A stretch of 63,912 bases of DNA, the filler included, from Sandaracinaceae bacterium (GTDB taxonomy: Bacteria; Myxococcota_A; Polyangia; Polyangiales; JADJQN01), in NCBI GenBank assembly GCA_947483975.1. It is 3 parts of 3 records of this genome, joined end to end, with 100 filler letters (N's around TTAATTAATTAA, not from the genome) between each part and the next. Parts side by side here need not be neighbours in the genome. Positions count along the whole stretch, not along the records: positions 24,924 to 49,585 come from CANKOL010000032.1; 2 more parts are not named here. One strand, given 5' to 3'. The first letter of the stretch is position 1. Each line of letters opens with the position of its first letter. The notes beneath the pieces were generated by a model. It saw only the letters and a program-made list of their open reading frames with translations. It was not told the DNA's origin and ran no database searches. The position numbers and the translations under genes were made by a program. Positions 10,418 through 55,929 of the stretch are shown here, one piece after another.

Positions 10418-10424
10418 GCGGAGC

Positions 10425-11027: not shown

Positions 11028-11052
11028 CGCTGTCTCCGTCGTCCCACTCCGC

Positions 11053-30323: not shown

Positions 30324-31440
30324 CGGGGACCGTCTCTCGAGGCTCGCCGAGCGCAGCGATCGCCGCCGCGCGCGTCGGGCCGAACATGACCGGCGCGACC
30401 GCATCGATCACCGCTTGTCGGTCGAGGCCCGGCACGGCCGCGAGGCGCGGCCACCACGCCAGCGGGATTCCGTCGCCGAGCTCGATCGAGCGGACCATCG
30501 CGGGCGCGCGTGACGCCGCCGCAGCGAGGAGGCCCTCGAGGTTCGCGTCGGCCCACGCGGGGTCGAGCCGGAGCAGGTCGCGGAACACCCAGGGCGCGAG
30601 GCCCTCGCGCGCGGCGCGGCGCAGTTCAGGGAGGGCGCGCTCGGCTGGGATGAGCCCCGCGACGGCGAACCCAGCGTACGTGCTCCAGAGGCGCGCCTCG
30701 AGGTCGCCGCCCTCCAGGGGGAGCTCAACGGCGACGCCGCGAAACCCCTGCGCGCCGTCGCGCACGACCGCCTCGACCGCGTCGACCAAGAGGCGCGCTC
30801 CGCGCGAACACGCGACGCTCAGGCCGACGCGCCGCTGCCGCGGAGTGCCCCCGAAGAGCCACGCCGCCATCGTGCGGTCGAAGGTCTCGACGGCCTCCGT
30901 GCCCGCGAGCGCTTCGCGAAAGGCGATCAGCGCGTCCACGTGGTCCTCGGCGTCGATCAGCTGCGCCAGCTGTTGCGTCCAGGCGCCGTCGTCCGCCACG
31001 ACGATCCCTCGGACCCGCGTCGGCAGGGACAGCGTCGCGTGTCCCGCGCACTCCCAGGGCGCGAACACCTGGGGCCCGCCGAAGCCGTTTTCACCGAGGT
31101 CGAGCTGCGTCGCTTGGAACACAGCGCGGAAGGTGCAGCGGCACAGATAGGTCCGAAACTCGGGCCCCTGACGCGCCCGCGCGCTGGGCTGGTCGGTCCA
31201 CGTCGGGTCGTCGTACAAGGCCGACAGCCACTCGATCACCGGCCGCCCCGAGACGAGCCCCGTATCGTCCAGAAACCAACCGTCCCGCGCGCTCACGTCG
31301 TGGCAGCAGCTTCTGCATAGGAGGTGGGAGCACGGCGTCGGTGGCGCAGGCTCACCGACCCAGGCGTACGCGTGTGGATCGACGGGGATGGGGACGGTCG
31401 GGCCGGTGACCCAGCCGCGGCGCGCGCAGAGGTTCGTCAT
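30313..31440 (-). CDS. Hypothetical protein with Cys/His-rich N-terminal domain
   Basis: CSHLLCRSCCH, YLCRC, WECAGH, followed by a helical region. Confidence 0.7.
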   Translation of the reverse strand: MTNLCARRGWVTGPTVPIPVDPHAYAWVGEPAPPTPCSHLLCRSCCHDVSARDGWFLDDTGLVSGRPVIEWLSALYDDPTWTDQPSARARQGPEFRTYLCRCTFRAVFQATQLDLGENGFGGPQVFAPWECAGHATLSLPTRVRGIVVADDGAWTQQLAQLIDAEDHVDALIAFREALAGTEAVETFDRTMAAWLFGGTPRQRRVGLSVACSRGARLLVDAVEAVVRDGAQGFRGVAVELPLEGGDLEARLWSTYAGFAVAGLIPAERALPELRRAAREGLAPWVFRDLLRLDPAWADANLEGLLAAAASRAPAMVRSIELGDGIPLAWWPRLAAVPGLDRQAVIDAVAPVMFGPTRAAAIAALGEPRETVPDGR

Positions 31441-31749
31441 CGACGAGACCTAGCCACTGGGTCGGCGTCGTCTCCGCGGGTCGTCGGCTGTGCGGCGAGC
31501 GCGTGTCCGCCGAGCGAACTGCTGATTCGTCCCCGCGCCATCCAGCGAGCAACGCTACGTGAGCGGCCTCTGAAGCACAAACGCAGAGTCGATGCCGCGC
31601 TGTTGGGCGGAGCCGAGCGCGCGCTGGCCGCCGCCCCGAGTGACAGTGCGTGCGACGGCCCACGGCGTGCTCAAGAGGGCAGCGGCGCCGTGCTACAAGG
31701 GCGGGCCGGCGAGCGCTTCTCGCCGGGTTCTCGCCCGAGGGAGGGTCAC

Positions 31750-32538
31750 GTGGATCCACAGCAGCAGCAGATGGGGCCAGCGCCCCAGGCACCACCGCAA
31801 GCAGTCTCAGCCTATGGCGCCGCGCAGGGCGGCCCGCCGAGCATCCCGCACGAGATCACGCACGGGCCGGCGTTCGCGCTGCTCCGCGTCGATCTCCCGC
31901 CGGGGCAGGTCGTCATCGCGGAGGCGGGGTCCATGGTCGCGCGCCACTCCGGCGTCGGCATGGAGGTCAAGATGAACGCCGGGAAGAACCCCGGCTTCTT
32001 CGGGATGCTCAAGGCGATCTTGATCGCGCTGATCCGCAAGTTCGTCGGCGGCGAGACGTTCTTCGTCAATCACTTCTCGTCGCCGCAGGGCGGCAGCGTG
32101 TGGGTCGCGCCGACGATGAGCGGGCAGATCGTGCACCGCCGCATGAACGGCGAGACGATCACGCTCTCGACGGGCGCGTTCCTCTGCTCGGCGGGCGACG
32201 TGGATATGTCGCTCAAGTTCGGCGGCTTTCGCGCGCTGCTCGCGCGAGAGGGCGCGTTCTTCTTGACGGTGACGGGGAGAGGCGATCTCTGGTTCACGAG
32301 CTATGGCGGCATCGAGGCGATCGACGTCAACGGCTCGTACATCGTCGATAACGGACATCTCGTCGGCTACGAGGGAGCGCTCACGTTCGACATCCGCGCG
32401 GCGGGCGGCGGGCTGATGGGCATGATGGCGAGCGGCGAAGGGCTCGTCTGCGAGTTCAAGGGTCAAGGGCGCGTGTACATCCAATCACGCAATCAGAGCT
32501 CGCTGCTCTCGTGGCTCACGCCCCTCGTGGGCGGCTGA
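31750..32538 (+). CDS. AIM24 / TIGR00266 family protein
   Basis: AEAGSMV, GGETFFVNHF, IVDNGHLV, SGEGLVCEFKGQGRVYIQSRN; GGAGGG before GTG 31750. Confidence 0.93.
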   Translation: MDPQQQQMGPAPQAPPQAVSAYGAAQGGPPSIPHEITHGPAFALLRVDLPPGQVVIAEAGSMVARHSGVGMEVKMNAGKNPGFFGMLKAILIALIRKFVGGETFFVNHFSSPQGGSVWVAPTMSGQIVHRRMNGETITLSTGAFLCSAGDVDMSLKFGGFRALLAREGAFFLTVTGRGDLWFTSYGGIEAIDVNGSYIVDNGHLVGYEGALTFDIRAAGGGLMGMMASGEGLVCEFKGQGRVYIQSRNQSSLLSWLTPLVGG

Positions 32539-32555
32539 AGGATAGGGAGAGAACC

Positions 32556-33227
32556 ATGCAGATCAATCTCCTTCACCGTCCCGCGCAGGCGCTCGCGCAG
32601 GTGTGGCTCGAGCCCAACGAGTCGATCGTCGCCGAGTCTGGCGCGATGGTCGGTATGACGACCAACGTGCAGATGCAGACGCAGTCCGGCGGGATGATGT
32701 CCGGACTCAAGCGGATGTTCGGCGGCGAGTCGTTCTTCCGCAACACGTTCACCTCGCAGAATGGCAATGGCGAGGTGCTCCTCGCGCACGCGCTCTCGGG
32801 CGATATGACCGTGCTCGAGATGACGCAGCAGGGGTACTTCCTGCAGTCGTCGGCGTTCATCGCGTCGTCGCCCGCGGTCAACCTCGACACGAAGGTCGGT
32901 GGTTTTCGCGGGTTCTTCTCGGGCGCGGGAGTGTTCGTCCTCAAGGCGACCTCGCAGGGGCCCGGACAGGTGCTCGTCGGCGGCTTCGGCGGGATTCAAG
33001 AGCTGGTGTGTGACGGCAACATCGTCATCGACACTGGGCATCTCGTCGCGTGGGACGCGTCGCTGACGTACACGGTCGGCAAGAGCGGGGCGGGCTGGAT
33101 CGCGTCGTTCCTCTCGGGCGAGGGGCTCGTCTGTCACTTCAAGGGGCAGGGACGCATCTGGATTCAGACGCGCAACCCCGTCGAATACGGCCGCGCCGTC
33201 GGCTCGCAGCTTCCGCCGAGGGGATGA
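32556..33227 (+). CDS. AIM24 / TIGR00266 family protein
   Basis: AESGAMV, GGESFFRNTF, IDTGHLVAW, SGEGLVCHFKGQGRIWIQTRN. Confidence 0.93.
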   Translation: MQINLLHRPAQALAQVWLEPNESIVAESGAMVGMTTNVQMQTQSGGMMSGLKRMFGGESFFRNTFTSQNGNGEVLLAHALSGDMTVLEMTQQGYFLQSSAFIASSPAVNLDTKVGGFRGFFSGAGVFVLKATSQGPGQVLVGGFGGIQELVCDGNIVIDTGHLVAWDASLTYTVGKSGAGWIASFLSGEGLVCHFKGQGRIWIQTRNPVEYGRAVGSQLPPRG

Positions 33228-33236
33228 GGAGGGCAT

Positions 33237-33920
33237 ATGCGTTACGAAGTCCGTCAGAAGCCTGATTTCGGAATCGTCCGCGTCGTCTTCGATGCGCCCG
33301 GCGAGCAGCTGCTCGTCGAGTCCGCCGCGATGGTCGCGCGAGACACGGCGATGGAGATGAAGACCGCGATGACCGGGGGGATCCTCGGCGCCGCCAAGCG
33401 CAAGCTGCTCGGGGGCGAGAGCATCTTCCAAAACACGTTCACGGCGACGGCCGCGGGGCAGACGCTGTGGGTCGCGCCGGGGCCCGAGGGCGACGTCCAA
33501 GAGCTGCTCTGCGACGGGCAGACGCCCGTGTTCATGCAGTCGGGCGCGTTCCTCGCGTGCGCGCCGACGGTGCAGCTCGACACCAAGTGGGGCGGGGCCA
33601 AGGGGTTCTTCTCGGGCGCGGGGCTGTTCTTGCTGCGCGCGATGGGGACTGGGCCGCTGTTCTTCTCGTGTTATGGCGGGATTCATCCCGTCGACGTCGG
33701 GGCGAATGGCTACATCGTGGACACGAGCCACATCGTCGGCTGGACGGGCGGGCTCGAGTATCGAGTGACCAAGCTCGGCGGGCTCAAGTCGCTGTTCTTG
33801 TCGGGTGAGGGGCTCGTCTGCGAGTTCCGCGGGCAGGGGCGGGTGTGGGTCTCGACGCGCAATCCGTCGAGCCTCGCGGCGTTCTTGCAGCCGTTCCGGC
33901 CGGTGAAGGCGAAGCAGTAG
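33237..33920 (+). CDS. AIM24 / TIGR00266 family protein
   Basis: VESAAMV, GGESIFQNTF, VDTSHIV, SGEGLVCEFRGQGRVWVSTRN. Confidence 0.93.
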   Translation: MRYEVRQKPDFGIVRVVFDAPGEQLLVESAAMVARDTAMEMKTAMTGGILGAAKRKLLGGESIFQNTFTATAAGQTLWVAPGPEGDVQELLCDGQTPVFMQSGAFLACAPTVQLDTKWGGAKGFFSGAGLFLLRAMGTGPLFFSCYGGIHPVDVGANGYIVDTSHIVGWTGGLEYRVTKLGGLKSLFLSGEGLVCEFRGQGRVWVSTRNPSSLAAFLQPFRPVKAKQ

Positions 33921-35180: not shown

Positions 35181-36104
35181 CTACGCGCCGAAGACCTCGA
35201 GGGCTGCGCGCGCGGTGTTTGCGTGGACGGCGACGACCTTGGACACGTCCTTCGTGTAGCCGCCCGCGAGCACCCACGCGATGGGGATTCCCGCGCGCTT
35301 CGCCGCCTCGAAGACGCGACGATCACGCTCGTAGAGATCGGTCACGCCGAGGTCGAGCGGCGAGTACGGGTCCTCGCGATAGGGGTCGGCGCCGGCCTGA
35401 TAGAGGATGACGCTCGGCTTGGCGCGCTCGAGCGCGCGGGGCAGATGCTCCTCGAGGAGCGCCAGATAGCCAGCGCCATCCGTGCCATTCGCGACTGGCA
35501 CGGACCAGCTGTTGTCGGTGTCCGGCGCGCGCTCGGTGTCGACGTCGCGAGAGGCGGTGTTGGCTTTGTACCAGCTGCCGTAGAGCGACAGCGCGAAGAG
35601 GTTCGGCCGCGTCGCGAGCAGGGACGCGGTGCCGTTGCCGTAGTGCACGTCGAGGTCGACCACGAGGCCGCGCTCGAGGCGCCCGTCGTGACGCGCGCGC
35701 TCGAGCGCGACGACGAGGCCGTGGAACGTGCAGAAGCCCTCGCCGTGATCGGCGTGCGCGTGATGAAAGCCGCTCGCGAGGTTGCCGGCGACGCCGTCTT
35801 CGAGCGCGGCGTAGAGCGCGGCGATGCAGCCGCCGCTCGTGAAGCGAACGGCCTCCGCGAGGCGCGCGGACCACGGGAATTTCTGAGACTCGGCGAGCGC
35901 CCTCGGCTCACCGGTCGCGACGGCGCGCACGTACTCTGCCGTGTGGACTCGGAGCAGGTCCTCGTCGGTCGCGGGCGCGGGTTCGAGGAACTCGAGCGCG
36001 AGCGCCTGCTCCTCGAGCGCGCGCCGCACGAGGTCGAATTTGCGAATCGGCATCACGTGTTCGCCGAGGTCCGCGGTGTACTTCGGCGAGTGAAAGACGC
36101 GCAT
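35181..36104 (-). CDS. Zn-dependent histone-deacetylase-family amidohydrolase
   Basis: GFHHAH, GFC, VDLDVHYGNGT, AGADP..EDP, AGGY. TGATG coupling to the upstream gene. Confidence 0.93.
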   Translation of the reverse strand: MRVFHSPKYTADLGEHVMPIRKFDLVRRALEEQALALEFLEPAPATDEDLLRVHTAEYVRAVATGEPRALAESQKFPWSARLAEAVRFTSGGCIAALYAALEDGVAGNLASGFHHAHADHGEGFCTFHGLVVALERARHDGRLERGLVVDLDVHYGNGTASLLATRPNLFALSLYGSWYKANTASRDVDTERAPDTDNSWSVPVANGTDGAGYLALLEEHLPRALERAKPSVILYQAGADPYREDPYSPLDLGVTDLYERDRRVFEAAKRAGIPIAWVLAGGYTKDVSKVVAVHANTARAALEVFGA

Positions 36105-38395
36105 CACGCCAGCGCTTTGGCGGCGCTCTCGAGGACGCCCGCGAGCTCCGCGACGTGCCGCGGCAGGAGGATGTTCGCGGGGCGGAACCGCACGCTCCGC
36201 GCGCCCGAGCCGCCGCACTCGACGCCGCCTCTGCGCAGCGCCTCGAGGAGCTTGGCGAGCGTCTGAGGGTCACGCGCGTCGACCGCCGCGAACGTGCCGC
36301 GCCCGCGCGCGTTCGAGAGGACGCCGGGGTACTTCGCGCTGAGCTCCTCGAGGGTCTTCACGAGGAGCGCGCCGGTGCTCCGCGCGTTGTCGAGGAGGCC
36401 GTCGCGCTCGGTGATCTCGATGATGACCTCGAGCTGCGCGAGCCGCAGCGGGTCGCCGAGGAAGGTGTTGAAGATCCGCAGCGGCTCGGCCGGGAAGAAC
36501 TCTTCTTTGCAGTAGTAGCCGCCCGTCTGCAGCTTCTTCGAGAACGTGACGAGGTCCGGCGGATCGTCGAGGCCCCACGCCTCGTGCGCCCACCACGCGC
36601 CGGTCGAGCCGCCGCAGGTCTGCACCTCATCGGCGATGAACGCGACGCCGTGCTCGCTCGCCAGGCGCCGCAGCCTTCGGAAGAAGTCCGCGCTCGCGTG
36701 GCAGTCGCCGCCTTCCCCTTGGATGGGCTCCACGATCAGCGCCGCGACCTCGTCTGGGTGCGCCTCGAAGACGGCGCGCACGGCGTCGAGCGAGCGCTCC
36801 TCGGCCGCGAGGTTCTCTGCGGCGTGCTCGGCGAGCGGAAATCTGTTCGCGGGGAACGGCGCTGTCGGCCACGCGAACGCGGGGAAGTCGACCTTGTGGA
36901 TCGCCTTGCTGCGAGTCGCCGAGAGCGCGCCGAGCGAGCGGCCGTGAAAGCCCCCCTCGAAGGAGAGCACCTTGAAGGCGTTCGCCATCGGCTGAGCGTT
37001 CTGCATGCACGAGGCGAGGTCGGCGTCCGTCGGGCCCTTGCCGCCGCGGCGACGGCGCGCCAGCCAGACGAAGGCCGCCTTGAGCGCGTTCTCGACGGCC
37101 TCCGCGCCGGTCGTCACGGTGACGAGCTTCGTGAGGCCCTTCGGCGCGATGCGGGTCATCGCCCCGGTGACGAGGTCGACCCACTCGGGCGAAGGCGCGA
37201 CGCCGAGCGCCGGTCGGTAGCCTGCGCACCAGTCGAAGCGCCCGGACTTCCACGCGGCGAGGAGGTCAGGGTGGTTGTAGCCGATAGGCAAGCACGCGAT
37301 GTGTCCGTACACGTCGAGGAGGACATTGCCGTCGACGTCGACGAGGTAGTTGCCGCGGCTCTTCTTCGCGTCTTGATAGACGTGCACCGTGCGCGCGTCC
37401 TGGATCGCTGAGTGCCGCTGCCGCAGCTCCTCGGTGCGGGGCCCGGGGATCGTGGTCTTGAGCTCGAGGTGGTCGGGCTCGCCGGGAATACGAGGAGTGG
37501 TCATGGTCTTTGGAGGATATTGGTGGACGACGGTGTGGAGCAGAGGGGCCAACGCGGGCTCGTCATGGAGGGAGCTCGGCGGCTCGAGGAGCGGGACCAG
37601 CGGGCCCGAGAAGGCGGCGAGGGTGTCGAGCGTGTGCGCGCGCGGCGGGGCCAGATCGGCCTCGCGGCAGTGCGCCGACACGACGCGATAGAGGTGCTCC
37701 ACGAACGCCGCCGCGAGGTGTCGCGGGAGCGCGCGCGCGGTCTCGTGGCCGACCCAGCGGACGACCGCGAGGAGCGGCACCGGGCGCAGCCGATCGGCGT
37801 CGATGAGCGCGTGCTCGCGATAGTCCGGCTGACAGTAAGGCAGCACGCGCGGGTCGATGATCTTGAAGCCCGCGCGCCCGTAGACGAGGAGCCGGACGCG
37901 CGTCTCCTCCGACTCGGCGACAGGCTCCATCTCGGCCGCGAGCACGAGATCGACGTCGCTTACTCCTTGTTCCCGCAGCTCCGACACGGCGCGTCGGCCG
38001 AGCGACGCGGGCACTTCGCGGAGCAGGCTCGCGAGCCCCGTGCGCCGATGAGCCGGCAGCACGACGGCGTGCGAGAGAAAGACCACGACGACGCGCGCGT
38101 CGCGGTCGACGCTCACATGACAGTCGCGGACGGCGGCGAGGTCGCCGGCTTCGTCGCGCGCGACGACGAGCTTGTAGCCGGTGGTGGGGCCGGCGCTGGC
38201 GAAGTACGCGAGGAGCGCGGGCCGGGTCTCGAGCTCGCCCTTGGCGGCGAACTCGTCGTGGAGGACCGTGTACGCGGCCTCGAAGCTCGGGTCCTCGGGG
38301 GACGCGACCAGCGAGAGCGCGTAGCGGTCCCACGCCGCGCGCGCCTTGGCGTCGCCCGGCGGAAGCTCGGTCAGCGCGAGGAGAGGCTGCGTCAC
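36104..38395 (-). CDS. gabT: Fusion of a GNAT-fold acetyltransferase (N-terminal) and a eukaryote-type 4-aminobutyrate aminotransferase (class III PLP)
   Basis: N-terminal VLPAHRRTGLAS (GNAT motif A) and YGRAGF. From 37504: KTTIPGP, SRGNYLVDVDGN, FHGRSLGALSATRSKAIHK, IVEPIQGEGG, DEVQT, TFSKK. Confidence 0.88.
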   Translation of the reverse strand: MTQPLLALTELPPGDAKARAAWDRYALSLVASPEDPSFEAAYTVLHDEFAAKGELETRPALLAYFASAGPTTGYKLVVARDEAGDLAAVRDCHVSVDRDARVVVVFLSHAVVLPAHRRTGLASLLREVPASLGRRAVSELREQGVSDVDLVLAAEMEPVAESEETRVRLLVYGRAGFKIIDPRVLPYCQPDYREHALIDADRLRPVPLLAVVRWVGHETARALPRHLAAAFVEHLYRVVSAHCREADLAPPRAHTLDTLAAFSGPLVPLLEPPSSLHDEPALAPLLHTVVHQYPPKTMTTPRIPGEPDHLELKTTIPGPRTEELRQRHSAIQDARTVHVYQDAKKSRGNYLVDVDGNVLLDVYGHIACLPIGYNHPDLLAAWKSGRFDWCAGYRPALGVAPSPEWVDLVTGAMTRIAPKGLTKLVTVTTGAEAVENALKAAFVWLARRRRGGKGPTDADLASCMQNAQPMANAFKVLSFEGGFHGRSLGALSATRSKAIHKVDFPAFAWPTAPFPANRFPLAEHAAENLAAEERSLDAVRAVFEAHPDEVAALIVEPIQGEGGDCHASADFFRRLRRLASEHGVAFIADEVQTCGGSTGAWWAHEAWGLDDPPDLVTFSKKLQTGGYYCKEEFFPAEPLRIFNTFLGDPLRLAQLEVIIEITERDGLLDNARSTGALLVKTLEELSAKYPGVLSNARGRGTFAAVDARDPQTLAKLLEALRRGGVECGGSGARSVRFRPANILLPRHVAELAGVLESAAKALA

Positions 38396-38405
38396 GCTCG
38401 AGGAC

Positions 38406-39806
38406 TCACGCCGACATCTCGACGAGCACCGCGTCGAAGACGCCCAGCGCGTCGTCGACCTCCGCCGGGCGCGTCACGAGGTGCGGTCGCAGGCGCACCG
38501 AGCGGGTGCCCGTGTACGTCGCCATCACGCCGCGCCGCTGCGCGCGCTTGAGAAAGTCGTCGCGCAGGGCCGCCGTCGGCAGGTCGAACGCGAGGAGAAA
38601 GCCCTGGCCGCGAGGCGACGTCACGAGGGCCGGATAGCGCTCGGCGAGCGCCTCGATCCCGGACAGAAAGTGCGCGCCCGTGGACTTCACGTTCGTCAGC
38701 AGGTCGTCGCTCGCGATCGTGCGGAGGATCTCGAGGCCGAGCAGCGCGCGCGCGCGGTCGCCGTTGCGCGTCTGGTACATGCGCCCGAACTGCGAGATGG
38801 CGTAGTCCGCGCTGGCGAAGAAGCCGCCCATCTGCATCTTCTTGCCGAACGTCACCATATCCGGCGGCTCGGGCAGCTCGAATTGCTCGTGCGCCCAGAG
38901 CGTGCCGCTCGGCCCGCAGCCCGTCTGCACCTCGTCGAAGATGAGCGCCGCTCCCGCCTGCCTCGTGAGCGCCTGCACGCGCCGGAAGAACGCGGGGCTC
39001 GCGTGCCTGTCGCCGCCCTCGGACTGCAGCGGCTCGACGATGACCGCCGCGACGCGCCCGGCGTGCCGCGCGAGGACGTGCGCGAGCTCCGTCAGCGACG
39101 CCTCCTCTGCGCGCGCGTTCTCGTCGGGGAAGCGCGCGAGCGGATAGCGGCTCTCCGGGAAGGGCACCTGCGGCCAAGGGAACGCGGGCAGGTCGGCCTT
39201 GTGCATCAGCTTGCTGTGCGTCGCCGACAGCGGGCCGAGGCCGCGGCCGTGAAACGCGCCGCCGAACGAGACGATGACCGCGTCCGTGCCCGCGTTGTCG
39301 AGGACCGCGCGCTGCTCGCCCTCCGGGAGCTCGAGCGGGTTCGGCGACCTGCCGTCGGCCTTGCGGCGCCGCTCGCCGTGCACGATGAACGCCGCCTTCA
39401 TCGCGCTCTCGACGCCCTCGCCGCCGGCGTCGACGCAGTACATCTTGGTCATGCCGCGCGGCGCAAAGCGCGCGCCGATCTCCTCGACGTACTCGATCCA
39501 GAACGGCGTCGTGAGGAACGGCGTCGAGGTCGGGTTGACCGACGCGTGCGCGAACGCCGGCGAGCGCGCGAGGTCGAGCAGCGCGGGGTGGTTGTAGCCG
39601 AGCGCGCCGAGCGCGAAGCTCGCGAAGAGGTCGAGGAAGACGTTGCCGTCGACGTCGTGGAGCCAAGGGCCCGACGAGGTCACGTCGTCCGCGATCACCG
39701 CGCGGTAGATCGACTGCATGTCGAAGCCGCCCCTCGCGATCAGCGCTTTGGCGAGGGGGCCTGGGAGCTCGGTCGTGACGAGGCGCTGGCTCTTCGGGGT
39801 GGTCAT
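38406..39806 (-). CDS. Class III aminotransferase (lysine 6-aminotransferase / GABA-AT subfamily)
   Basis: DVDGNVFLD, LGYNHP, FHGRGLG, VEPLQSEGGD, FDEVQTG, TFGKK, LRPHL. Confidence 0.9.
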   Translation of the reverse strand: MTTPKSQRLVTTELPGPLAKALIARGGFDMQSIYRAVIADDVTSSGPWLHDVDGNVFLDLFASFALGALGYNHPALLDLARSPAFAHASVNPTSTPFLTTPFWIEYVEEIGARFAPRGMTKMYCVDAGGEGVESAMKAAFIVHGERRRKADGRSPNPLELPEGEQRAVLDNAGTDAVIVSFGGAFHGRGLGPLSATHSKLMHKADLPAFPWPQVPFPESRYPLARFPDENARAEEASLTELAHVLARHAGRVAAVIVEPLQSEGGDRHASPAFFRRVQALTRQAGAALIFDEVQTGCGPSGTLWAHEQFELPEPPDMVTFGKKMQMGGFFASADYAISQFGRMYQTRNGDRARALLGLEILRTIASDDLLTNVKSTGAHFLSGIEALAERYPALVTSPRGQGFLLAFDLPTAALRDDFLKRAQRRGVMATYTGTRSVRLRPHLVTRPAEVDDALGVFDAVLVEMSA

Positions 39807-39904
39807 GGCGCGGCAAGTATCGAGCAGCGCGGCGCGCTTGTCACCGCGCTCGACTCAGCGCGCTTGAGGTGTCTGCGCCGTTCGTGGTCTGCTGCGGCTC
39901 GCTC

Positions 39905-41302
39905 ATGGCATCTCCGCTCCGACCGATCGAAGAGGCCTGTTATTGGCTCGCCAAGCACCAGCGTCCGGCGCTGCCGCCGCTCCGCGGGAGGCGCGAGGCA
40001 GACCTCGCGATCATCGGCGCGGGCTTCACGGGCCTCTGGACGGCGCACTTTCTAAAAGAGCTCGAGCCGAGCCTCGAGATCGTCGTCGTCGAGCAGGCGA
40101 CCGCGGCGTACGGCGCGAGCGGGCGCAACGCCGGGATGGTCCTCGACACGATCGATCACTCGCACGACCTCGCCATCTCGCACTTCGGTGAGGCAGAGGC
40201 CCAACGCCTCGCGACCCTCGGGCGCGACAACGTCGACGAGCTGCTCGCGACGCTCGCGGCGCGCGGGATCGACTGCGACGTCGAGCGAACTGGCACGCTC
40301 ATCGTCGCGCTCCACGACGCGCACCTCGAGGGCTTTCGCGCGGACGTCGAGCGCGCGCGCGCGTTCGGGATCGATGACCTCCAGGTCCTCGACGCCGGCG
40401 AGGTGCGGCAGCGCCTCCACAGCGAGCGCTACCTCGGTGGGCTCTTCAACCCGCACGGCGCGGTGCTCGATCCCGCCGCGCTCGTGGAGGGCCTCGCGCG
40501 CGATGTGCGGGCGCGCGGCGTGTCGATCTACGAGCAGACGCGCGTGACGAGCCTCGAGCGGGACGGGGAGCGCGTCCGCCTGCGCACGCTCGCCGGCGAG
40601 CCGGGTGAGGTCGTCGCGAAGACCGCGATCCTCGCGACGAACGCGTACAGCCACCTCCTCCTGCCCTCGCTGAGCCGCTACTTCGTCCCGCTCTACGACT
40701 ACATCCTCGTGAGCGAGCCGCTCGACCGAGCGCAGCGCGCCGCGCTCGGCTGGCGCGGGCGCGAGGGCGTCAACGACGTGCGCACGTTCTTCAACTACTA
40801 CCGGCTGACGAAGGACGACCGCGTGCTCTGGGGCTCGAGCGACGCGTCCTATTACGGCGACAACCGCGTGGACGCGTCCTGCGATCACTCCGAGCGCCAC
40901 TACGCGGCGCTGCGCGCGAGCTTCGCGGCGCATTTTCCTGCCCTCGCGGGCCTCGCGTTTCCGTACGCCTGGGGCGGTCCCATCGACGCGACGACGCGCT
41001 TCACGCCGTTCTTCGGGACCGCGCACGGCGGCCGCGTCCTCTACGGCCTCGGCTTCACGGGGCACGGGATCGCGACGACGCACCTCGCGGGCAAGCTCCT
41101 CGCGCACCTGGGCCTCGCGAAGCCGAGCGCGCTGCTCGACCTCGCGCTCGTGCGCAAGAAGCCGTTCCCGTATCCGCCGGAGCCGTTTCGCTCGTGGGGA
41201 GTCGCCGCAGTCACGCGCGATCTGCGGCGCCTCGACGAGGGCGGTACGCCGAGCCTCCTGCTGCGCGCGCTCGATCTGCTCGGGATCGGCCTCTCGAGCT
41301 AG
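39905..41302 (+). CDS. FAD-dependent amine oxidoreductase (DAO family, PuuB-like)
   Basis: IIGAGFTGLWTA, GASGRNAG, LATNAY, NYYRLTKDDRVLWG, WGGPID, GFTGHGIA. Confidence 0.9.
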   Translation: MASPLRPIEEACYWLAKHQRPALPPLRGRREADLAIIGAGFTGLWTAHFLKELEPSLEIVVVEQATAAYGASGRNAGMVLDTIDHSHDLAISHFGEAEAQRLATLGRDNVDELLATLAARGIDCDVERTGTLIVALHDAHLEGFRADVERARAFGIDDLQVLDAGEVRQRLHSERYLGGLFNPHGAVLDPAALVEGLARDVRARGVSIYEQTRVTSLERDGERVRLRTLAGEPGEVVAKTAILATNAYSHLLLPSLSRYFVPLYDYILVSEPLDRAQRAALGWRGREGVNDVRTFFNYYRLTKDDRVLWGSSDASYYGDNRVDASCDHSERHYAALRASFAAHFPALAGLAFPYAWGGPIDATTRFTPFFGTAHGGRVLYGLGFTGHGIATTHLAGKLLAHLGLAKPSALLDLALVRKKPFPYPPEPFRSWGVAAVTRDLRRLDEGGTPSLLLRALDLLGIGLSS

Positions 41303-41421
41303 GCAATCCCGTCGAACGCGGAGCGCGGCAGTCGGAATTGGATGAGCGATGGCGGGTGCCGTCGCCGTCGTGGGTGCGCGCTGGAAGGCCTCACTTGGGT
41401 CGGGGCGTGTAGCATTGGCCG

Positions 41422-42867
41422 ATGACCGAAGCGCACGTTCGACCCGGTAAGCTCCTCATCGGTGGCCAAGAGCTCGACGCCAAGAGCGGCGAGACGCTCG
41501 ACACCGTCAACCCCGCGACTGGCGCGCGCCTCACCACGCTCGCGCGCGGGAGCGCCGTAGACGTCGACGACGCGGTGCGCTCAGCGCGGGTCGGCTTCGA
41601 GGCGTGGACGAAGCTCGGGCACGCCGAGCGCGCGCGCATCCTCTGGAAGGTCGGCGAGCTGATGATGGCGAAGCTCGAGGAGCTCGCGGTGCTCGAGACG
41701 CTCGACACGGGCAAGCCCATCGCCGCGTCGCGCCTCGTCGACGTCCCTCGGAGCGCCGACACGTTCTTCTACTTCTCGGGCTGGGCGACGAAGCTCCACG
41801 GCGAGACGATCCCCGTGCGAGGTCCGTTCCTCAACTACACGGTCCGAGAGCCGCTCGGCGTGATCGGCGCGATCATCCCCTGGAATTTCCCGCTCCTGCT
41901 CGGCACTCGAAAGGTCGCCGCGGCGCTCGCCGCGGGCAACTCCGTCGTGCTCAAGCCACCCGAGCAGGCGAGCCTCGCCTGCCTCGAGCTCGGCAAGCTC
42001 CTCCTCGAGGCGGGCGCGCCTCCGGGCGTGCTCAACGTCGTGACGGGCCTCGGCGAGGAGGCGGGCGCCGCCCTCGTCGAGCACCCGGGCGTCGACAAGA
42101 TCTCGTTCACCGGCGGGACGGCGACGGGCAAGCGCATCATGCGCGCCGCCGCGAGCACGCTGAAGCGGGTCTCGCTCGAGCTCGGCGGCAAGAGCGCGAA
42201 CATCATCTTCGCGGACGCGAACCTCGACGTCGCCATCCCCGCGGCCGTCCGCGCGGTGTTCTACAACCAGGGGGAGCTCTGCACGGCGGGCACTCGCCTC
42301 CTCGTCGAGCGGAGCATCCACGAGCGCGTGCTCGAGGGCGTCGTCGCCGGCGCGAAGGCGCTCAAGGTCGGCGACCCGCTCGACCCGTCGACGCAGATGG
42401 GACCGCTGATCACCGCGGAGCACAGGGCCATGGTCGAGCGGTACATCGCGAGCGGTGAGCAAGAGGGCGCGACGCGTGTCTCCGGCGCGAAGCGAGCCGA
42501 ACCGGGCTTCTTCGTCGAGCCGACGGTCTTCGCCGCCGTCTCGGAGCAGATGACCATCGCGCGCGAGGAGATCTTCGGCCCCGTGCTCAGCGTGATCCCG
42601 TTCGACGGCGTGGACGAGGCCGCGCGGATCGCCGACGCCACGGAGTTCGGGCTCGCGGCGGGCGTCTGGACGAGAGACGTCGGGCGCGCGCACTCGCTCG
42701 CGTCGCGCCTCCGCGCGGGCACCGTCTGGATCAACACGTACAACCTCTTCGACGCAGCGAGCCCCTACGGCGGCTACAAGCAGTCCGGCTTCGGCCGCGA
42801 GAACGGCGCCGAGGTGCTGCAGGAGCTCACGCAGTCGAAGAGCGTCTGGGTCTCGCTCGCGACCTAG
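41422..42867 (+). CDS. NAD-dependent aldehyde dehydrogenase
   Basis: IIPWNFP, FTGGT, LELGGKS, NQGELC, EEIFGPV, GGYKQSGFGRE. Confidence 0.95.
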   Translation: MTEAHVRPGKLLIGGQELDAKSGETLDTVNPATGARLTTLARGSAVDVDDAVRSARVGFEAWTKLGHAERARILWKVGELMMAKLEELAVLETLDTGKPIAASRLVDVPRSADTFFYFSGWATKLHGETIPVRGPFLNYTVREPLGVIGAIIPWNFPLLLGTRKVAAALAAGNSVVLKPPEQASLACLELGKLLLEAGAPPGVLNVVTGLGEEAGAALVEHPGVDKISFTGGTATGKRIMRAAASTLKRVSLELGGKSANIIFADANLDVAIPAAVRAVFYNQGELCTAGTRLLVERSIHERVLEGVVAGAKALKVGDPLDPSTQMGPLITAEHRAMVERYIASGEQEGATRVSGAKRAEPGFFVEPTVFAAVSEQMTIAREEIFGPVLSVIPFDGVDEAARIADATEFGLAAGVWTRDVGRAHSLASRLRAGTVWINTYNLFDAASPYGGYKQSGFGRENGAEVLQELTQSKSVWVSLAT

Positions 42868-42880
42868 CGCCGCGCGCTGC

Positions 42881-44242
42881 TCAGCCGAGCCAGACAGTCT
42901 TCACGTTCGTGAACTCTCGGAGGCCGTAGACCGAGAGCTCGCGGCCGTAGCCCGAGCGCTTGATCCCGCCGAAGGGGATGCGCGGATCGCTCTTCACGAG
43001 CCCGTTCACGAACACCCCGCCCGCCTCGATTTGCACGGCGAGGCGCTCGGCGCGCGCGCGGTCCGCGGTCCACAGGGACGCGCCGAGGCCGTAGGGAGTG
43101 TCGTTCGCGAGCGCGATGGCGTCCTCTTCGCTCTTGGCGCGCGTCACCGCCGCGACGGGGCCGAACGTCTCCTCGTCGAACACCGGCGTGCCCTTCTCGG
43201 CCTCGAGCACGGTCGGCGGATAGAACGCGCCCTTACCGGCGGGGAGCTGCGCCCCACACAGCACCTTCGCGCCCCGGGCGAGCGACTCGGTCACTTGCCG
43301 GTGCAGGTTGTCTCGGAGGTCGAGGCGCGCTTGCGGCCCAATCTGCGTGTCAACGTCGAGGGGATCTCCCAGCTTTCGTCGCTTCACCTCGGCGACGAAG
43401 AGCTCGATGAAGCGGTCCGCGACTTGCTCGACGACGATGAAGCGCTTCGCCGCGATGCAGCTCTGCCCGCTGTTCAAGAGGCGGGCGGCGGCCGCCGTCG
43501 ACGCGGCTCTCGCGAGGTCCGCGTCGGCGAGGACGATGAACGGGTCGCTCCCGCCGAGCTCGAGGACGACCTTCTTCAGCGCGCGGCCCGCCTGCTCGGC
43601 GACGCTGCTGCCGGCGCGCTCGCTCCCCGTCAGCGTGACCGCGACGACGCTCGGGTGCGCGATCGCGCGAGACGCGACCTCGGCGCCTCCGTGCACGACG
43701 CCGAAGAGCCCGCTCGGCAAGCCCGCGTCTCGAAAGACCTGCTCGATGTGGAGCGCGCAGCGCGTGACGTTCGGCGCGTGCTTGAGCACGGCGCCGTTGC
43801 CCGCCATCAGCGCCGGCGCGGCGAAGCGGAAGACCTGCCAAAAAGGGAAATTCCAGGGCATCACGGCGAAGACGACGCCGAGCGGATCGAAGCGCACATA
43901 GCTCTTCTGCGCGTCCGTCTCGTAGACCTCGGGCGCGAGGAGTCGCTCCGCGTTCGTGGCGTAGTAGTCGCACGTCGTCGCGCACTTCTCGGCCTCGGCC
44001 TTCCCCTCGGCGAGGGGCTTCCCCATCTCGAGCGCCATCGTGCGCGCGAAGGGGAGCGCGTCTCTGCGCAGGAGCTCCGCCGCCGCGCGCAGCGCCCCCG
44101 CGCGGTCTGCATAGGAGCGCCGCCGCCACGCGCCGAACGCGTCGTGCGCGCGCAGGACGACGCGGTCGACGTCCTCGTCGCTCGAGGTGTCGAACGTCTC
44201 GAGGAGCTCGCCGTTCGCAGGGTTCCGCGACTCGATGTCCAT
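42881..44242 (-). CDS. sad: Succinate-semialdehyde dehydrogenase (Sad/GabD1 type)
   Basis: AVMPWNFPFWQVFRFAAPALMAGN, LKHA, LTGSERAG, LELGGSDP, NSGQSCIAAKR, EETFGP. Confidence 0.9.
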   Translation of the reverse strand: MDIESRNPANGELLETFDTSSDEDVDRVVLRAHDAFGAWRRRSYADRAGALRAAAELLRRDALPFARTMALEMGKPLAEGKAEAEKCATTCDYYATNAERLLAPEVYETDAQKSYVRFDPLGVVFAVMPWNFPFWQVFRFAAPALMAGNGAVLKHAPNVTRCALHIEQVFRDAGLPSGLFGVVHGGAEVASRAIAHPSVVAVTLTGSERAGSSVAEQAGRALKKVVLELGGSDPFIVLADADLARAASTAAAARLLNSGQSCIAAKRFIVVEQVADRFIELFVAEVKRRKLGDPLDVDTQIGPQARLDLRDNLHRQVTESLARGAKVLCGAQLPAGKGAFYPPTVLEAEKGTPVFDEETFGPVAAVTRAKSEEDAIALANDTPYGLGASLWTADRARAERLAVQIEAGGVFVNGLVKSDPRIPFGGIKRSGYGRELSVYGLREFTNVKTVWLG

Positions 44243-44393
44243 CGTCTCTCGCTCCTCGTTTGGGGGACGCGCATCCTAGCAACGCACGGGCGCGCGCGGC
44301 CAACGTTGACTTTGAGGAGCCGCTTCCCGCAGGCTCAGGCCGGTCGATGCTCTGGTTCAAAAATGCGCGGGGGCTGGCGATGGAGGAACGGTC

Positions 44394-44564
44394 ATGACGC
44401 GAGCAGTGGCCAGCTTCCGATGCGCTCGTGGCGACCTGACCCGCTCGCTCGAGGCGTACTTCCCCTCGTACTGCCTCGGCGTCGTCGTGGACGACCCGAC
44501 GGGCGCTGGCGCAATCCCCAACACGAGCCACCAGACTACGGTCCTCCTGGGCCTCACCACCTGA
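44394..44564 (+). CDS. Candidate 56-aa small ORF upstream of the ABC importer
   Basis: GGAGGA 6 nt before ATG; MTRAVASFRCARGDLTRSLEAYFPSYCLGVVVDDPTGAGAIPNTSHQTTVLLGLTT; ends 13 bp before the next start. Too short for the ORF track. Confidence 0.4.
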   Translation: MTRAVASFRCARGDLTRSLEAYFPSYCLGVVVDDPTGAGAIPNTSHQTTVLLGLTT

Positions 44565-44577
44565 TTCTGAGAGCCGC

Positions 44578-46191
44578 ATGAAACATCGACTACGACGCTT
44601 GATGGGTCTCGCCGCGTGCATGGCCGTCGCCGCCATCGCGGTTCAGTCGTGTGGGGGAAACGGCTCTGGCGCCCCCGGCCGCGATGCGGGGGCCGCAGCA
44701 CCTTCGGGCGCACGACGACCCGATGGAAGCCTCGCGCGCGTACGCGCCGCGGGAGTGCTCCGCTGGGGCGGCGATGTGCAGGGTGGAGCGCCCTATGTGT
44801 ACGACGACCCCGACCATCCGGGGCAGAACAAGGGCTTCGAGGTCGACCTCGCCATCGCGCTCGCGCGCGAGCTCGGCGTGCGCGCGGAGTTCGTGCAGAA
44901 CGACTGGTCGGCGCTGGTGCCGTCCCTCGAGCGCAACACCTTCGACGTCATCCTCAACGGCTTCGAGGTGACGCGCCCGCGCGTGGGCCGCGTGCGCTTC
45001 TCGCCGCCGTACTACGTGTTCGCCGCGCGGCTGATGGCCCGGCGCGACGACGCCCGCATACGCGCCGACGTCAACTCGCTGCGCGGGATGCGCATCGGTA
45101 CGCTCACCAACTCGTTCTCCGAGGAGGTGCTCAAGGGCCACGCCGAGATCGTCGGCTACGAGGGGACCGAAGAGCCCTACGCCGACTGCGTCGCCGGGCG
45201 CACCGACGGCGTGCTCCTCGACGACATCATCGCGACCATCTACGGCGTGCCGAAGCCCGAGCTGCGCGTCGTGGGCGATCTGGCCGACGGCTTCTACGCC
45301 ATCGCCGGGCGGCCCGCCGACGAGGACCTCGGCGTGGCGCTCGACGCGGCCCTCGCGCGCATCATCGCGAGCGGCGAGCTCGAGCGGATCCTCAAGCGCG
45401 AGAACATCTACAACGACCGGCAGCTCGGGCTCCGCACTTGGTCCGCCGATGACCAGCGCCGCATGCTCGGCCTGAGCCCCGCGGCCCCGGGCCAGACTGG
45501 CGCGCTCGGTGGCCCGCCGCCCGGCGCGGCGGGTGTCTCGAGCACGGCGCCGCACCGGATGACCCTCGGCCAGGTGTGGATGTTCATCCAGGGCGCGGGC
45601 ATCACGCTGCTCCTGTCGATCCTCGCGATGGGCCTCGCGGTCCCGCTCGGCCTCGCGCTCGCCGTGTCGCGGCTCTACGGGCCAAAATTCGTCGCGCGCC
45701 TCGCCGACCTCTACGTCGAGTTCTACCGCGGCACGCCGGTGCTCTTGCAGCTCTACGTTCTCTACTACGGACTCGCGAGCATCATCCGCCTCGACGCCGT
45801 CACGGCCGCGGTGCTCGGCCTCGGGATGAACTACGCCGCCTACGAGGCCGAGGTCTATCGCGCCGGCATCCAAGCCGTCCCCAAAGGCCAGCTCGAGGCG
45901 GCGCTCTCGCTCGGAATGACCACGCCCCTCGCGCTGCGCAGAGTCGTGCTCCCGCAGGCGTTCCGGCTCGCGCTGCCGTCGGTCACCAACGACTTCATCG
46001 CGCTCCTGAAGGACAGCTCGCTCGTGTCGGTGATCACCGTCGTGGAGCTCACCAAGCGCATGACCATCGTCGCCGTCGACACCCGCAGCTACGTGGTCCC
46101 CGGCCTGCTCTGCGCGTTCCTCTACTTCGCGATGAGCTACCCCCTGTCGATCTTGGCGAAACGGCTCGAGGAGAGGCTGGCGCGGTCATGA
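44578..46191 (+). CDS. Polar amino-acid ABC transporter, fused substrate-binding domain and permease
   Basis: Lipobox VQSC; SBP family 3 motifs GFEVDLA and FSPPYY; permease RGTPVLLQL, AAYEAEVYRAGI, EAA loop, LLKDSSL. Confidence 0.93.
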   Translation: MKHRLRRLMGLAACMAVAAIAVQSCGGNGSGAPGRDAGAAAPSGARRPDGSLARVRAAGVLRWGGDVQGGAPYVYDDPDHPGQNKGFEVDLAIALARELGVRAEFVQNDWSALVPSLERNTFDVILNGFEVTRPRVGRVRFSPPYYVFAARLMARRDDARIRADVNSLRGMRIGTLTNSFSEEVLKGHAEIVGYEGTEEPYADCVAGRTDGVLLDDIIATIYGVPKPELRVVGDLADGFYAIAGRPADEDLGVALDAALARIIASGELERILKRENIYNDRQLGLRTWSADDQRRMLGLSPAAPGQTGALGGPPPGAAGVSSTAPHRMTLGQVWMFIQGAGITLLLSILAMGLAVPLGLALAVSRLYGPKFVARLADLYVEFYRGTPVLLQLYVLYYGLASIIRLDAVTAAVLGLGMNYAAYEAEVYRAGIQAVPKGQLEAALSLGMTTPLALRRVVLPQAFRLALPSVTNDFIALLKDSSLVSVITVVELTKRMTIVAVDTRSYVVPGLLCAFLYFAMSYPLSILAKRLEERLARS

Positions 46192-46922
46192 TCACCATCG
46201 ACAAGCTCCAAAAGAAGTTCGGCGATCGCGTCGTGCTCTCGGACATCTCGGTGACCTTCGAGAAGGGCAAGGTCGTCTCGCTGATCGGCCCGTCGGGGGG
46301 CGGCAAGAGCACGCTCCTGCGCTGCGTGAACGGGCTCGAGACCTTCGACGCGGGCTCGATCACCGTCGACGATCTCAAGCTCGAGCCCGGCGACGCGAAG
46401 AAGAACAAGCACGCCTTGCTCGCGATCCGGCAGCGGGTGGGGATGGTGTTCCAGCAGTGGAACCTCTTCTCGCATCGCACGGCCCTCGGGAACGTCATGG
46501 AGGCGCCCGTGCACGTGAAGGGCGTGTCCCCTGCGCAGGCGACGGAACGCGCGAAGGCGCTGCTCGATCGCGTCGGGCTCTCGCACCGGATGGGCGCTTA
46601 CCCGCACGAGATGTCGGGCGGCGAGCAGCAGCGCGTCGCCATCGCGCGGGCGCTCGCGATGGACCCCGAGGCGCTGCTCCTCGACGAGCCGACGAGCGCG
46701 CTCGATCCGGAGCGCGTCGGCGAGGTGCTCGACGTGCTGCGCAAGCTCGCGAAAGAGGGGCAGACGATGCTCGTGGTCACGCACGAGATGCGGTTCGCGC
46801 GCGAGGCGAGCCACCGCACGCTCGTGCTCCACGGCGGCGCCATCATCGAGGACGGCCCGCCCGAGCAGGTCATGGACCACCCGACGCACGAGCGCACTCG
46901 CGCGTTTCTCGGCAAGGGCTGA
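46188..46922 (+). CDS. Polar amino-acid ABC transporter ATPase (GlnQ/HisP family)
   Basis: GPSGGGKS, GMVFQQWNLF, MSGGEQQRVAIARAL, LDEPTSALDPE, VTHEM; ATGA overlap. Confidence 0.95.
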   Translation: MITIDKLQKKFGDRVVLSDISVTFEKGKVVSLIGPSGGGKSTLLRCVNGLETFDAGSITVDDLKLEPGDAKKNKHALLAIRQRVGMVFQQWNLFSHRTALGNVMEAPVHVKGVSPAQATERAKALLDRVGLSHRMGAYPHEMSGGEQQRVAIARALAMDPEALLLDEPTSALDPERVGEVLDVLRKLAKEGQTMLVVTHEMRFAREASHRTLVLHGGAIIEDGPPEQVMDHPTHERTRAFLGKG

Positions 46923-52489: not shown

Positions 52490-52501
52490 AGGAATCACGT
52501 C

Positions 52502-55906: not shown

Positions 55907-55929
55907 CGTAGAGCGGAGGCGCTCGGCTC

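Follow-up and report, generated by a model that had tools for sequence, protein, structure and literature searches.

We identified a gene cluster in a metagenome-assembled genome (MAG) of a Sandaracinaceae bacterium (assembly GCA_947483975.1) that may encode a catabolic route in which an imported amine of the di- or polyamine type, or a basic amino acid feeding into such a route, is broken down while one amino group is protected by an acyl group; we give this reading about an even chance. The cluster occupies positions 35181-46922 of the window, by which we mean the whole stretch of 63,912 nucleotides that was analysed, fillers included. Comparison across genomes argues strongly that an unannotated family of proteins with a predicted GNAT fold forms a functional unit with a deacylase, which is either the HDAC or C45, and with GABA-type aminotransferases, an oxidase resembling PuuB and aldehyde dehydrogenases (ALDHs), and argues as strongly that this unit is tied to polyamine import in relatives.

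Gene content of the cluster

The cluster lies wholly inside one contig (G000:C32), which begins at position 24924; positions 1-24823 are a different contig (G000:C31). The genome is 81% complete, a figure to be borne in mind for every genome-wide absence given below. The initial annotation had described eight contiguous genes here, and open reading frame (ORF) calling, Pfam and NCBIfam agree with its coordinates and, the GNAT half of the fusion apart, with its domain assignments. The genes, with the two domains of the fusion protein on separate lines, are as follows.

35181-36107, minus strand: HDAC-family Zn deacylase, predicted class IV/cluster 5 type, 307-308 amino acids (aa); Hist_deacetyl (PF00850) 176.8 bits
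36104-38395, minus strand: GNAT::aminotransferase fusion, ORF of 763 aa; Aminotran_3 at residues 336-757 is the only Pfam call
37496-38395, minus strand: GNAT_A, N-terminal domain of the fusion (residues 1-300); predicted fold and a weak Acetyltransf_7 match
36104-37480, minus strand: AT1, C-terminal domain of the fusion, ABAT-type class III aminotransferase; TIGR00699 503 bits
38406-39806, minus strand: AT2, second ABAT/LAT-like class III aminotransferase; Aminotran_3 263 bits
39869-41302, plus strand: DAO_A, PuuB-like FAD amine oxidase/dehydrogenase; Pfam DAO 227.7 bits
41422-42867, plus strand: ALDH1, PuuC/betaine-aldehyde dehydrogenase-like; Aldedh 582.5 bits
42881-44242, minus strand: SSADH-like ALDH; Aldedh 472 bits, NF006915 568 bits and NF010575 512 bits, the latter two under their cutoffs
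44578-46191, plus strand: ABC importer, substrate-binding protein (SBP)::permease fusion; SBP_bac_3 and BPD_transp_1
about 46188-46922, plus strand: ABC importer ATPase; ABC_tran 115 bits, TcyN/GlnQ/EhuA-like 277-296 bits

The GC content is about 70%, and 22 kb hold 93 ORFs of at least 100 aa, many of them spurious overlaps; real genes were told from these by a third-position GC content (GC3) above 0.85 together with domain matches. The three minus-strand genes (AT2, fusion and HDAC) are tightly packed. The AT2 stop lies 10 nt ahead of the GTG start of the fusion, and the TGA stop of the fusion overlaps the ATG of the HDAC gene (TGATG). The HDAC ORF spans 35181-36218(-), but translation really starts further in, at either ATG 36104 or GTG 36107. 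DAO_A starts 62 nt from the divergent AT2 start. Pfam finds no Gln-synt, Peptidase_C26 or regulator domain within 35181-46922, in keeping with the earlier statement that the cluster holds no ligase, gamma-glutamyl hydrolase or regulator.

Conservation across genomes

The initial annotation had named a lack of co-conservation as the result that would speak against it, and we found that HDAC, GNAT, ABAT-like aminotransferases, oxidase and ALDHs recur across Polyangia and beyond. In a phylum sample of 401 genomes from 254 genera, the GNAT family is present in 35 genomes and 19 genera, usually in two copies (here called A and B types), and was not found in a genome of the same genus (G001). Of the 401 genomes, 20 have an orthologue of the HDAC (E<=1e-60, 54-70% identity); every one of the 20 has the GNAT family too, with at most 5 kb between the HDAC and a GNAT gene. 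A further amidase, the N-terminal nucleophile (Ntn) amidase C45, has an orthologue (E<=1e-99) in 12 of the 15 GNAT-containing genomes that lack the HDAC; a single genome carries the HDAC and C45 together, and three carry neither of them.

Gene order was mapped by tblastn in 24 GNAT-anchored loci of about 20 kb each, four from a first set of matches and 20 of 75 listed places, taken from the upper part of the list with two-copy contigs favoured. An A-type GNAT is present in 20 of the 24, in 16 of these 20 beside an AT1 orthologue (56-68% identity), and GNAT_A and AT1 share a single ORF in at least ten relatives. The HDAC is found in 12 loci and C45 in its place in three, and a B-type GNAT adjoins a DAO gene in 15.

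A second scan, anchored on the HDAC with one genome per species, returned 302 relatives, and the following counts are from the best 80 loci, in which GNAT presence was judged with two query proteins at E<=1e-10. The GNAT is present in 71 (60 of 66 among those with at least 3 kb upstream), an AT1-like aminotransferase (at least 50% identity) in 40, an AT2-like one in 30, a DAO in 31, any ALDH in 27 and a Pot-type importer in 20. Among the nine loci without a GNAT, three offer fewer than 250 bases of sequence upstream of the HDAC, and a fourth lies on a short contig. The 80 loci derive from many Sorangium strains, among them Sorangium cellulosum So ce26, So0157-2 and So ceGT47, from Polyangiaceae, Labilithrix and Byssovorax MAGs, from "Deltaproteobacteria" and Binatia MAGs, and from Verrucomicrobiota. 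The cluster is found in complete genomes of cultivable Sorangium strains, and the GNAT family as assigned by sequence spans Polyangia (including these strains), other Myxococcota and Verrucomicrobiota. Five loci bear the titles Klebsiella pneumoniae, Bifidobacterium, Akkermansia muciniphila and Enterobacteriaceae (L091, L111, L109, L128 and L117); each has a high-GC cluster like those of Polyangia or Verrucomicrobia, with HDAC identities of 52-70%, and these organism labels look wrong.

Three layouts can be distinguished. Type I, in Polyangia, reads ALDH1<- AT2-GNAT_A-AT1-HDAC-> <-GNAT_B DAO_B->. Type II reads PotA<-GNAT_B<- DAO_B-> <-omega-aminotransferase GNAT->HDAC->PotC->PotD->PotB, with unrelated flanks, and its aminotransferase scores above the PRK07480 cutoff (558 versus 510 bits). 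Type III is a GNAT-HDAC pair seen in nine loci of Verrucomicrobiota. The neighbouring importers include PotD/PotF-like proteins (194-246 bits, cutoff 582) and a PotA-like ATPase, which clears the TIGR01187 cutoff (355.6 bits) with a score of 370.8.

Two further genes were observed near relatives of the cluster. A luciferase-like monooxygenase gene lies upstream of PotA/GNAT_B/DAO_B in three genomes of one genus (L030, 19-762; L034, 3604-5088; L035, 3514-5442). In genome G103 a gene of the saccharopine-dehydrogenase family, which includes homospermidine- and carboxynorspermidine-type enzymes, adjoins an extra ALDH gene (L024, 17275-18555(-)).

An unannotated family with a GNAT fold

Residues 1-300 of the fusion protein have no Pfam match at E<=0.001. 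Acetyltransf_7 scores 12.3 bits (E 0.23) against a cutoff of 27, so the curated Pfam GNAT threshold is missed, and among 54 family members there are weak matches to Acetyltransf_7 in 14 and to Acetyltransf_1 in 11, with best E-values of 0.0003-0.003. A profile of five N-terminal domains gave no match to PDB sequences at E<=10. Neighbours in the ESM Atlas are "hypothetical protein" clusters that have no Pfam family in common.

The predicted structure is more informative. An AlphaFold2 model of the domain, made from five homologues, has a mean pLDDT of 75.7 and a pTM of 0.77, and Foldseek places nothing but GNATs among its top PDB matches (E about 1e-5, probability 1.0). VIA-align places it on 3ey5 with a Z of 14.2 and a root-mean-square deviation of 2.9 over 174 residues, and on many small-molecule and N-terminal acetyltransferases with Z of 11-12.6, among them the polyamine acetyltransferase Dpa (8a9n, Z 11.4). 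The N-terminal domain is thus predicted to be a GNAT fold, a member of an unannotated GNAT family. The model bears out the fold that the initial annotation had called, for a family that is new to Pfam. A motif of the form R/Q-x-x-G-x-G/A, which we take to be the acyl-CoA pyrophosphate-binding loop, is present as HRRTGLA at residues 115-121 of GNAT_A, and RRxGLA/RRxGxA is conserved in the family. All 54 members have R117, and at least 90% of them G120; neither residue varies among the 41 members linked to an HDAC. We propose that GNAT_A is an acyl-CoA:amine N-acyltransferase.

A word-index search with residues 1-300 returned only the query among 8000 scored candidates, which reflects a limit of that index, and a related-locus search that used the fusion protein in full brought up no relative; the family was recovered by profile. 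The exhaustive profile search yielded 406 representative clusters at E<=0.001, 168 of them at E<=1e-30, and most members are stand-alone proteins of about 280-330 aa. In a quick IQ-TREE run the DAO-linked GNATs form one clade (27 rows, support 100), and the HDAC-linked GNATs split in two, one group having 35 rows and a support of 94 and the other 22 rows and a support of 98. A complex prediction for HDAC and GNAT_A scored 0.00; it was run without controls and is uninformative on binding either way.

Two unrelated candidate deacylases

The residues H115, H116, D151, D153, H155, D241 and Y284 of the window HDAC, which we take to be the catalytic His-His pair, the Asp/His/Asp metal ligands and the catalytic Tyr, are invariant in 42 orthologues. 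The best PDB match is VcHdaH (9GKV, 143 bits). The acetylpolyamine-type enzyme APAH (6phr) reaches 60 bits over residues 113-295 only, and APAH ranks far below enzymes of clusters 5, 1 and 2 in the PDB sequence comparison. VcHdaH is grouped with HDAC11 in cluster 5, a type in which the RPP motif gives way to a Gly-rich xGGxHH and a GGY motif stands at the foot pocket (PMC11532494). Aligned with these motifs, the window HDAC has ASGFHH where VcHdaH has SGGYHH, and AGGY where VcHdaH has GGGY. In the available text of that study, VcHdaH is a weak lysine de-decanoylase only, with decanoate bound in an extended foot pocket whose lining is formed by the motifs SGGYHH and GGGY; small-molecule substrates are left open by its authors, and bacterial polyamine deacetylases are described as found only in cluster 4 (PMC11532494).

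C45 adjoins a GabT-like aminotransferase gene (NCBIfam GABAtrnsam, 437 bits) in all 13 mapped loci, often together with an SSADH-like ALDH gene. Genome G152 has an operon in which these genes and polyamine transport are combined, with the order AT-ALDH-C45-PotA-PotB-PotC-PotD-GNAT_A::AT1, an SSADH-like gene on the opposite strand and DAO_B nearby. Two unrelated amidases are therefore each coupled to a GABA-type aminotransferase, which is our best single argument that the product of the deacylase would be an omega-amino acid.

The conserved pair of a GabT-like aminotransferase and C45, an amidase/acyltransferase of autoproteolytic type, seen in loci L039-L046 (for example L041, 8487-10867), also occurs in nine genomes without the GNAT family and may be an independent salvage unit for compounds of the N-acyl-GABA type. 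Another pairing of acyltransferase and amidase stands beside the cluster in a Polyangiaceae MAG (L028), where a fusion of an Acetyltransf_1 GNAT to CN_hydrolase, a nitrilase-superfamily amidase (3759-5318(-)), is followed by a gene for a bacterial GabT-like aminotransferase (2329-3762(-)).

Aminotransferases, oxidase, dehydrogenases and importer

AT1 matches pig and human ABAT with 446 bits (E 2e-132), lysine epsilon-aminotransferase with 173 bits and PuuE with 145 bits. It keeps ABAT residues F189, R192, E270, D298, Q301, K329 and R445 and lacks the Fe-S cysteines 135 and 138; the positions follow what we take to be pig ABAT numbering, checked against C135/C138 (CGSC motif) in the 1OHV chain. 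AT2 scores 305 bits to ABAT and keeps R192, E270, K329 and R445. Both are under the TIGR00699 cutoff of 567 bits (AT1 503, AT2 376). The lysine 6-transaminase family model (LAT_fam) gives 264 bits for AT1 and 271 for AT2, and Mycobacterium tuberculosis LAT 173-194 bits. From these matches AT1 and AT2 look like omega-amino-acid aminotransferases, AT1 being predicted to be a GABA (omega-amino acid):2-oxoglutarate aminotransferase of animal type. That AT2 might act on N-acyl-diamines and have no carboxylate site was also considered, an idea that the retained R192 and R445 do not support.

DAO_A is 30% identical to Escherichia coli PuuB over nearly its full length (E 1e-46) and 32% identical to its own-genome paralogue DAO_B, which is as distant as PuuB. 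It has no match to PDB sequences at E<=1e-10. The best family model for both oxidases is TIGR03329, with 256 and 218 bits. Catabolism of 2-aminoethylphosphonate was rejected as a function of the cluster: these scores are far under the TIGR03329 cutoff of 633, and the cluster genes and flanks have no phosphonatase-type Pfam match. ALDH1 shares 47% of its residues with E. coli PuuC (E 3e-144) and scores 493 bits to the PuuC model, whose cutoff is 850; its orthologues (64-84% identity) stand beside the cluster in many relatives.

The initial annotation had called the importer one of amino-acid type. For the window itself this stands, the SBP being nearest in the PDB to binders of cationic amino acids, His and Lys/Arg/Orn; it does not extend to relatives, which carry importers of PotABCD type. 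Elsewhere the genome has two Orn_Arg_deC_N decarboxylase genes, and no OKR_DC_1 gene was found in it. Given such an SBP and such decarboxylase genes, the route could start from a basic amino acid, which would enter through decarboxylation or in a variant resembling the AST pathway.

A second module in the same genome

A further contig of the genome (G000:C49, locus L016) carries a second module consisting of DAO_B, GNAT_B and ALDH_B, which the initial annotation had missed. Its three genes are at 7291-8679(-), 8673-9977(+) and 9949-11439(-) of that locus. In most relatives only a few kb separate the B module from the HDAC operon. We looked for missing pathway genes in the spacers of several kb between the A and B modules and found the spacers variable and their contents unrelated (for example MopE/FG-GAP proteins, prolyl oligopeptidase, transposases and a sulfatase).

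Proposed pathway and alternative explanations

Each chemical step proposed here is inferred from gene content, the conservation of that content, folds and active-site residues. GNAT_A or GNAT_B would acylate one amino group of the amine from an acyl-CoA, most simply acetyl-CoA. The PuuB-like flavoenzyme of the DAO family would then oxidise the free amino end to an aldehyde, and the PuuC-like ALDH would convert the aldehyde to an N-acyl omega-amino acid. The class IV-type HDAC, or in other genomes the C45 amidase, would take off the acyl group. AT1 and AT2 would transaminate the freed GABA, beta-alanine or 5-aminovalerate, and the SSADH-like ALDH would yield succinate or a homologue. Such a sequence of blocking, oxidising and unblocking is the most economical reading of the cluster, and we regard it as evenly poised between right and wrong. 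Of the Puu-like, acetyl-blocked pathway first suggested for these genes, the Puu-like outline is supported by gene content and co-conservation; acetyl was assumed, for a deacylase that now appears cluster 5-like, and the oxidase is only 30% identical to PuuB.

Several observations weigh against this pathway. The window HDAC is, by sequence, of class IV/cluster 5 type and not of the cluster 4 type to which APAH belongs. Its nearest characterised relative is a de-decanoylase, so the blocking acyl group need not be acetyl and could be longer, and a protein is a possible substrate. Two GNAT paralogues and two ABAT-like aminotransferases are unexplained by one linear route; a triamine route with GABA and beta-alanine branches, which is speculation, would use all of the paralogues. 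The Pot-linked type II clusters have no ALDH within 8 kb, and in the sole annotated locus of Verrucomicrobiota (L104) the GNAT and HDAC genes overlap amid unrelated neighbours. C45 is held by 22 of the 401 genomes, nine of which are without the GNAT family. The window SBP is nearest to amino-acid binders and not to PotD, and one query found no PotD-like gene in the bacterium's own genome, which shows little given the incompleteness of that genome. In addition, related genomes in the phylum sample are not independent samples.

In a route resembling the AST pathway, the GNAT would block the alpha-amino group, or at any rate one amino group, of imported ornithine, lysine or 2,4-diaminobutyrate; the ABAT/LAT-like aminotransferase fused to it or next to it would take off the omega-amino group, an ALDH would act on the resulting semialdehyde, and the HDAC would free glutamate or aminoadipate. 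The cationic amino-acid type of the window SBP is consistent with this, as are the matches of both aminotransferases to the lysine 6-transaminase family and their carboxylate-binding Arg residues, and the GNAT::aminotransferase fusion would join consecutive steps. However, we consider it unlikely, given the PotABCD-type rather than amino-acid importers of relatives and an AT1 whose match to GABA aminotransferase (446 bits) far exceeds the one to LAT (173). It also leaves the SSADH-like ALDH and the PuuB-like oxidase without a role, and there is no AstA-type Pfam match in the window domain (E<=10) or the 54 members (E<=0.1). Similarly improbable, in our view, is that the GNAT-HDAC pair reversibly acylates polyamines in the service of homeostasis or salvage, comparable to SSAT/HDAC10, alongside an ordinary putrescine/GABA route formed by the aminotransferases, oxidase and ALDHs. 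The translationally coupled GNAT-HDAC pair is the most widely kept unit and stands alone in L104, and the HDAC would also permit the use of imported N-acylated amines. In type II the pair shares an operon with PotC, PotD and PotB in the absence of an ALDH, and the PRK07480-type omega-aminotransferase could act on free amines; moreover, two aminotransferases and two ALDHs would suffice for the known transaminase route (PatA, PatD, GabT and GabD; PMC9397018). Set against this are the fusion of GNAT_A to a GABA-type aminotransferase in at least ten genomes, the tight pairing of GNAT_B with the oxidase (15 of 24 loci; clade support 100), the position of C45 beside GabT- and SSADH-like genes, which fits an omega-amino acid product and not a polyamine, and an HDAC outside the cluster 4 polyamine-deacetylase type.

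Less likely again is a protein acylation switch, in which GNAT and HDAC would act on a lysine of a metabolic enzyme as AcuA/AcuC act on acetyl-CoA synthetase, AcuA being the acetyltransferase partner of AcuC in Bacillus subtilis, and would in this way control the catabolic enzymes encoded nearby. An operon of a GNAT and an HDAC is a known regulatory design. AcuC is described as deacetylating AcsA, and VcHdaH is reported in the available text as active only on acyl-lysine peptides, although its authors leave small-molecule substrates open (PMC11532494). The fold matches of the GNAT also include protein N-terminal acetyltransferases at similar Z. A switch of this kind would fit poorly with two GNAT paralogues that are each tied to a different enzyme gene, with fusion to a complete aminotransferase that has all its catalytic residues, with the C45 Ntn amidase in most holders that lack the HDAC, and with clusters embedded in polyamine importer operons. 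The cluster might finally run in the anabolic direction, towards an N-acylated amine or omega-amino acid serving as compatible solute, signal or natural-product block. Aminotransferase and ALDH-type chemistry is reversible in principle, the GNAT family is unannotated, and Polyangia are rich in secondary metabolism. We consider this very improbable: importers rather than exporters are embedded in the clusters, no PKS (polyketide synthase), NRPS (nonribosomal peptide synthetase), ligase or tailoring genes recur in the flanks, and a deacylase in the same operon would undo the product of the acyltransferase.

Neighbouring genes in the window

Three tandem AIM24-domain genes (404, 238 and 227 aa) lie a short way upstream of the cluster, at 31324-33920. 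The opposite flank holds an unassigned ORF and GDPD, TetR and HlyD genes. At 50679-57837 comes what looks like an efflux system: a TetR-family regulator, then a membrane-fusion protein of HlyD type, then two long ORFs of 1134 and 635 aa. Positions 24824-24923 are the junction between the two contigs named above, and anything spanning them would be an artefact.

Implications for polyamine metabolism

A 2022 review lists five bacterial routes of polyamine utilisation, of which the acetylation route ends at acetylspermidine, with its fate in E. coli given there as unknown (PMC9397018, in the text available). Conversion of N-acetylputrescine to 4-acetamidobutanoate in Pseudomonas aeruginosa is described in a preprint (PMC10542159). 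In the literature searched, which excludes subscription journals, we came across no gene cluster in bacteria that encodes a route protected by acetyl or another acyl group, and the probable breakdown of polyamine-like amines by blocking, oxidation and unblocking with this cluster would be a route undescribed at the gene level in bacteria. Our broader suggestion is tentative and rather less likely than the pathway itself: the GNAT family (406 clusters) together with class IV-type HDAC or C45 may represent a further bacterial polyamine strategy, acyl-CoA-dependent protection, which in its fullest form would take triamines of the spermidine type into GABA and beta-alanine branches. Acyl protection would then be added to gamma-glutamylation, to transamination or oxidation carried out directly, and to the use of spermidine dehydrogenase.

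If this is true, the two GNATs, oxidases, ALDHs and ABAT-like aminotransferases of the genome would share in triamine breakdown, a sizeable family of "hypothetical proteins" would gain a function, and the fate of acylated polyamines in bacteria would be answered, closing the gap left by acetylspermidine. It would also give bacterial class IV/HDAC11-like deacylases a metabolic role and their first physiological small-molecule substrate, the only tested member being, in the available text, a weak peptide de-decanoylase (PMC11532494). The presence of the cluster in cultivable Sorangium strains makes the idea open to direct genetics and enzymology.

Comparison with known systems

The AST pathway (AstA-AstE) follows the same order of logic, with an acyl-CoA-dependent N-acyl block, a class III aminotransferase, an ALDH and a deacylase. 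The cluster differs from it in having an oxidase and no AstA, AstB or AstE family matches, and the importers of its relatives are for polyamines, not arginine; the best 50 VIA-align rows for the N-terminal domain include no AstA structure, which still leaves room for a likeness to AstA. In the AcuA/AcuC system of B. subtilis, a GNAT gene and an HDAC-family gene likewise share one operon. However, AcuC belongs to cluster 2 and is class I-like (PMC11532494), and the GNAT described here is of another family, fused to an aminotransferase and with a paralogue linked to an oxidase.

Bacterial APAH enzymes (of M. ramosa, and P. aeruginosa PA1409 and PA0321; cluster 4) are, like the window HDAC, Zn amidases of the HDAC fold, and act in polyamine metabolism (PMC11532494). 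The window HDAC has ASGFHH and AGGY of the class IV type in place of their RPP motif. The substrates of APAH are acetylated polyamines, met where a route begins, whereas the window HDAC is proposed to act in mid-route on an N-acyl amino acid. The chemistry proposed here is that of the eukaryotic acetyl route of yeast and mammalian brain, in which N-acetylputrescine passes through N-acetyl-4-aminobutanal and 4-acetamidobutanoate to GABA. The yeast enzymes include the 4-acetamidobutyrate deacetylase of Candida boidinii, and in astrocytes MAO-B, ALDH1A1 and SIRT2 carry out the acetyl route of putrescine, the latter according to the available text of PMC11734448. The bacterial cluster would use a new GNAT rather than SSAT, a DAO rather than a MAO, and a class IV-type HDAC or C45 rather than a sirtuin, and its genes are clustered with an importer.

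The same logic is seen in the E. coli Puu pathway (PuuA, PuuB, PuuC, PuuD and PuuE, with Sad), in which a substrate is blocked, oxidised twice, unblocked, transaminated and oxidised again. The initial annotation had called for a check of the genome for PuuA and PuuD homologues. There is one Gln-synt_C match in it (462 bits, GlnA-like) and no convincing Peptidase_C26, with three partial matches of 24-45 bits at profile positions 100-219; none of these is in the cluster. DAO_A resembles PuuB and ALDH1 resembles PuuC to the degree given above, and the cluster shares with Puu a GABA-type aminotransferase and an SSADH-like ALDH. In contrast, its aminotransferases are of the animal ABAT type and not of the PuuE/GabT type, and the places of the PuuA ligase and the PuuD hydrolase would be taken by a transferase of GNAT fold and an amidase of HDAC (or C45) type.

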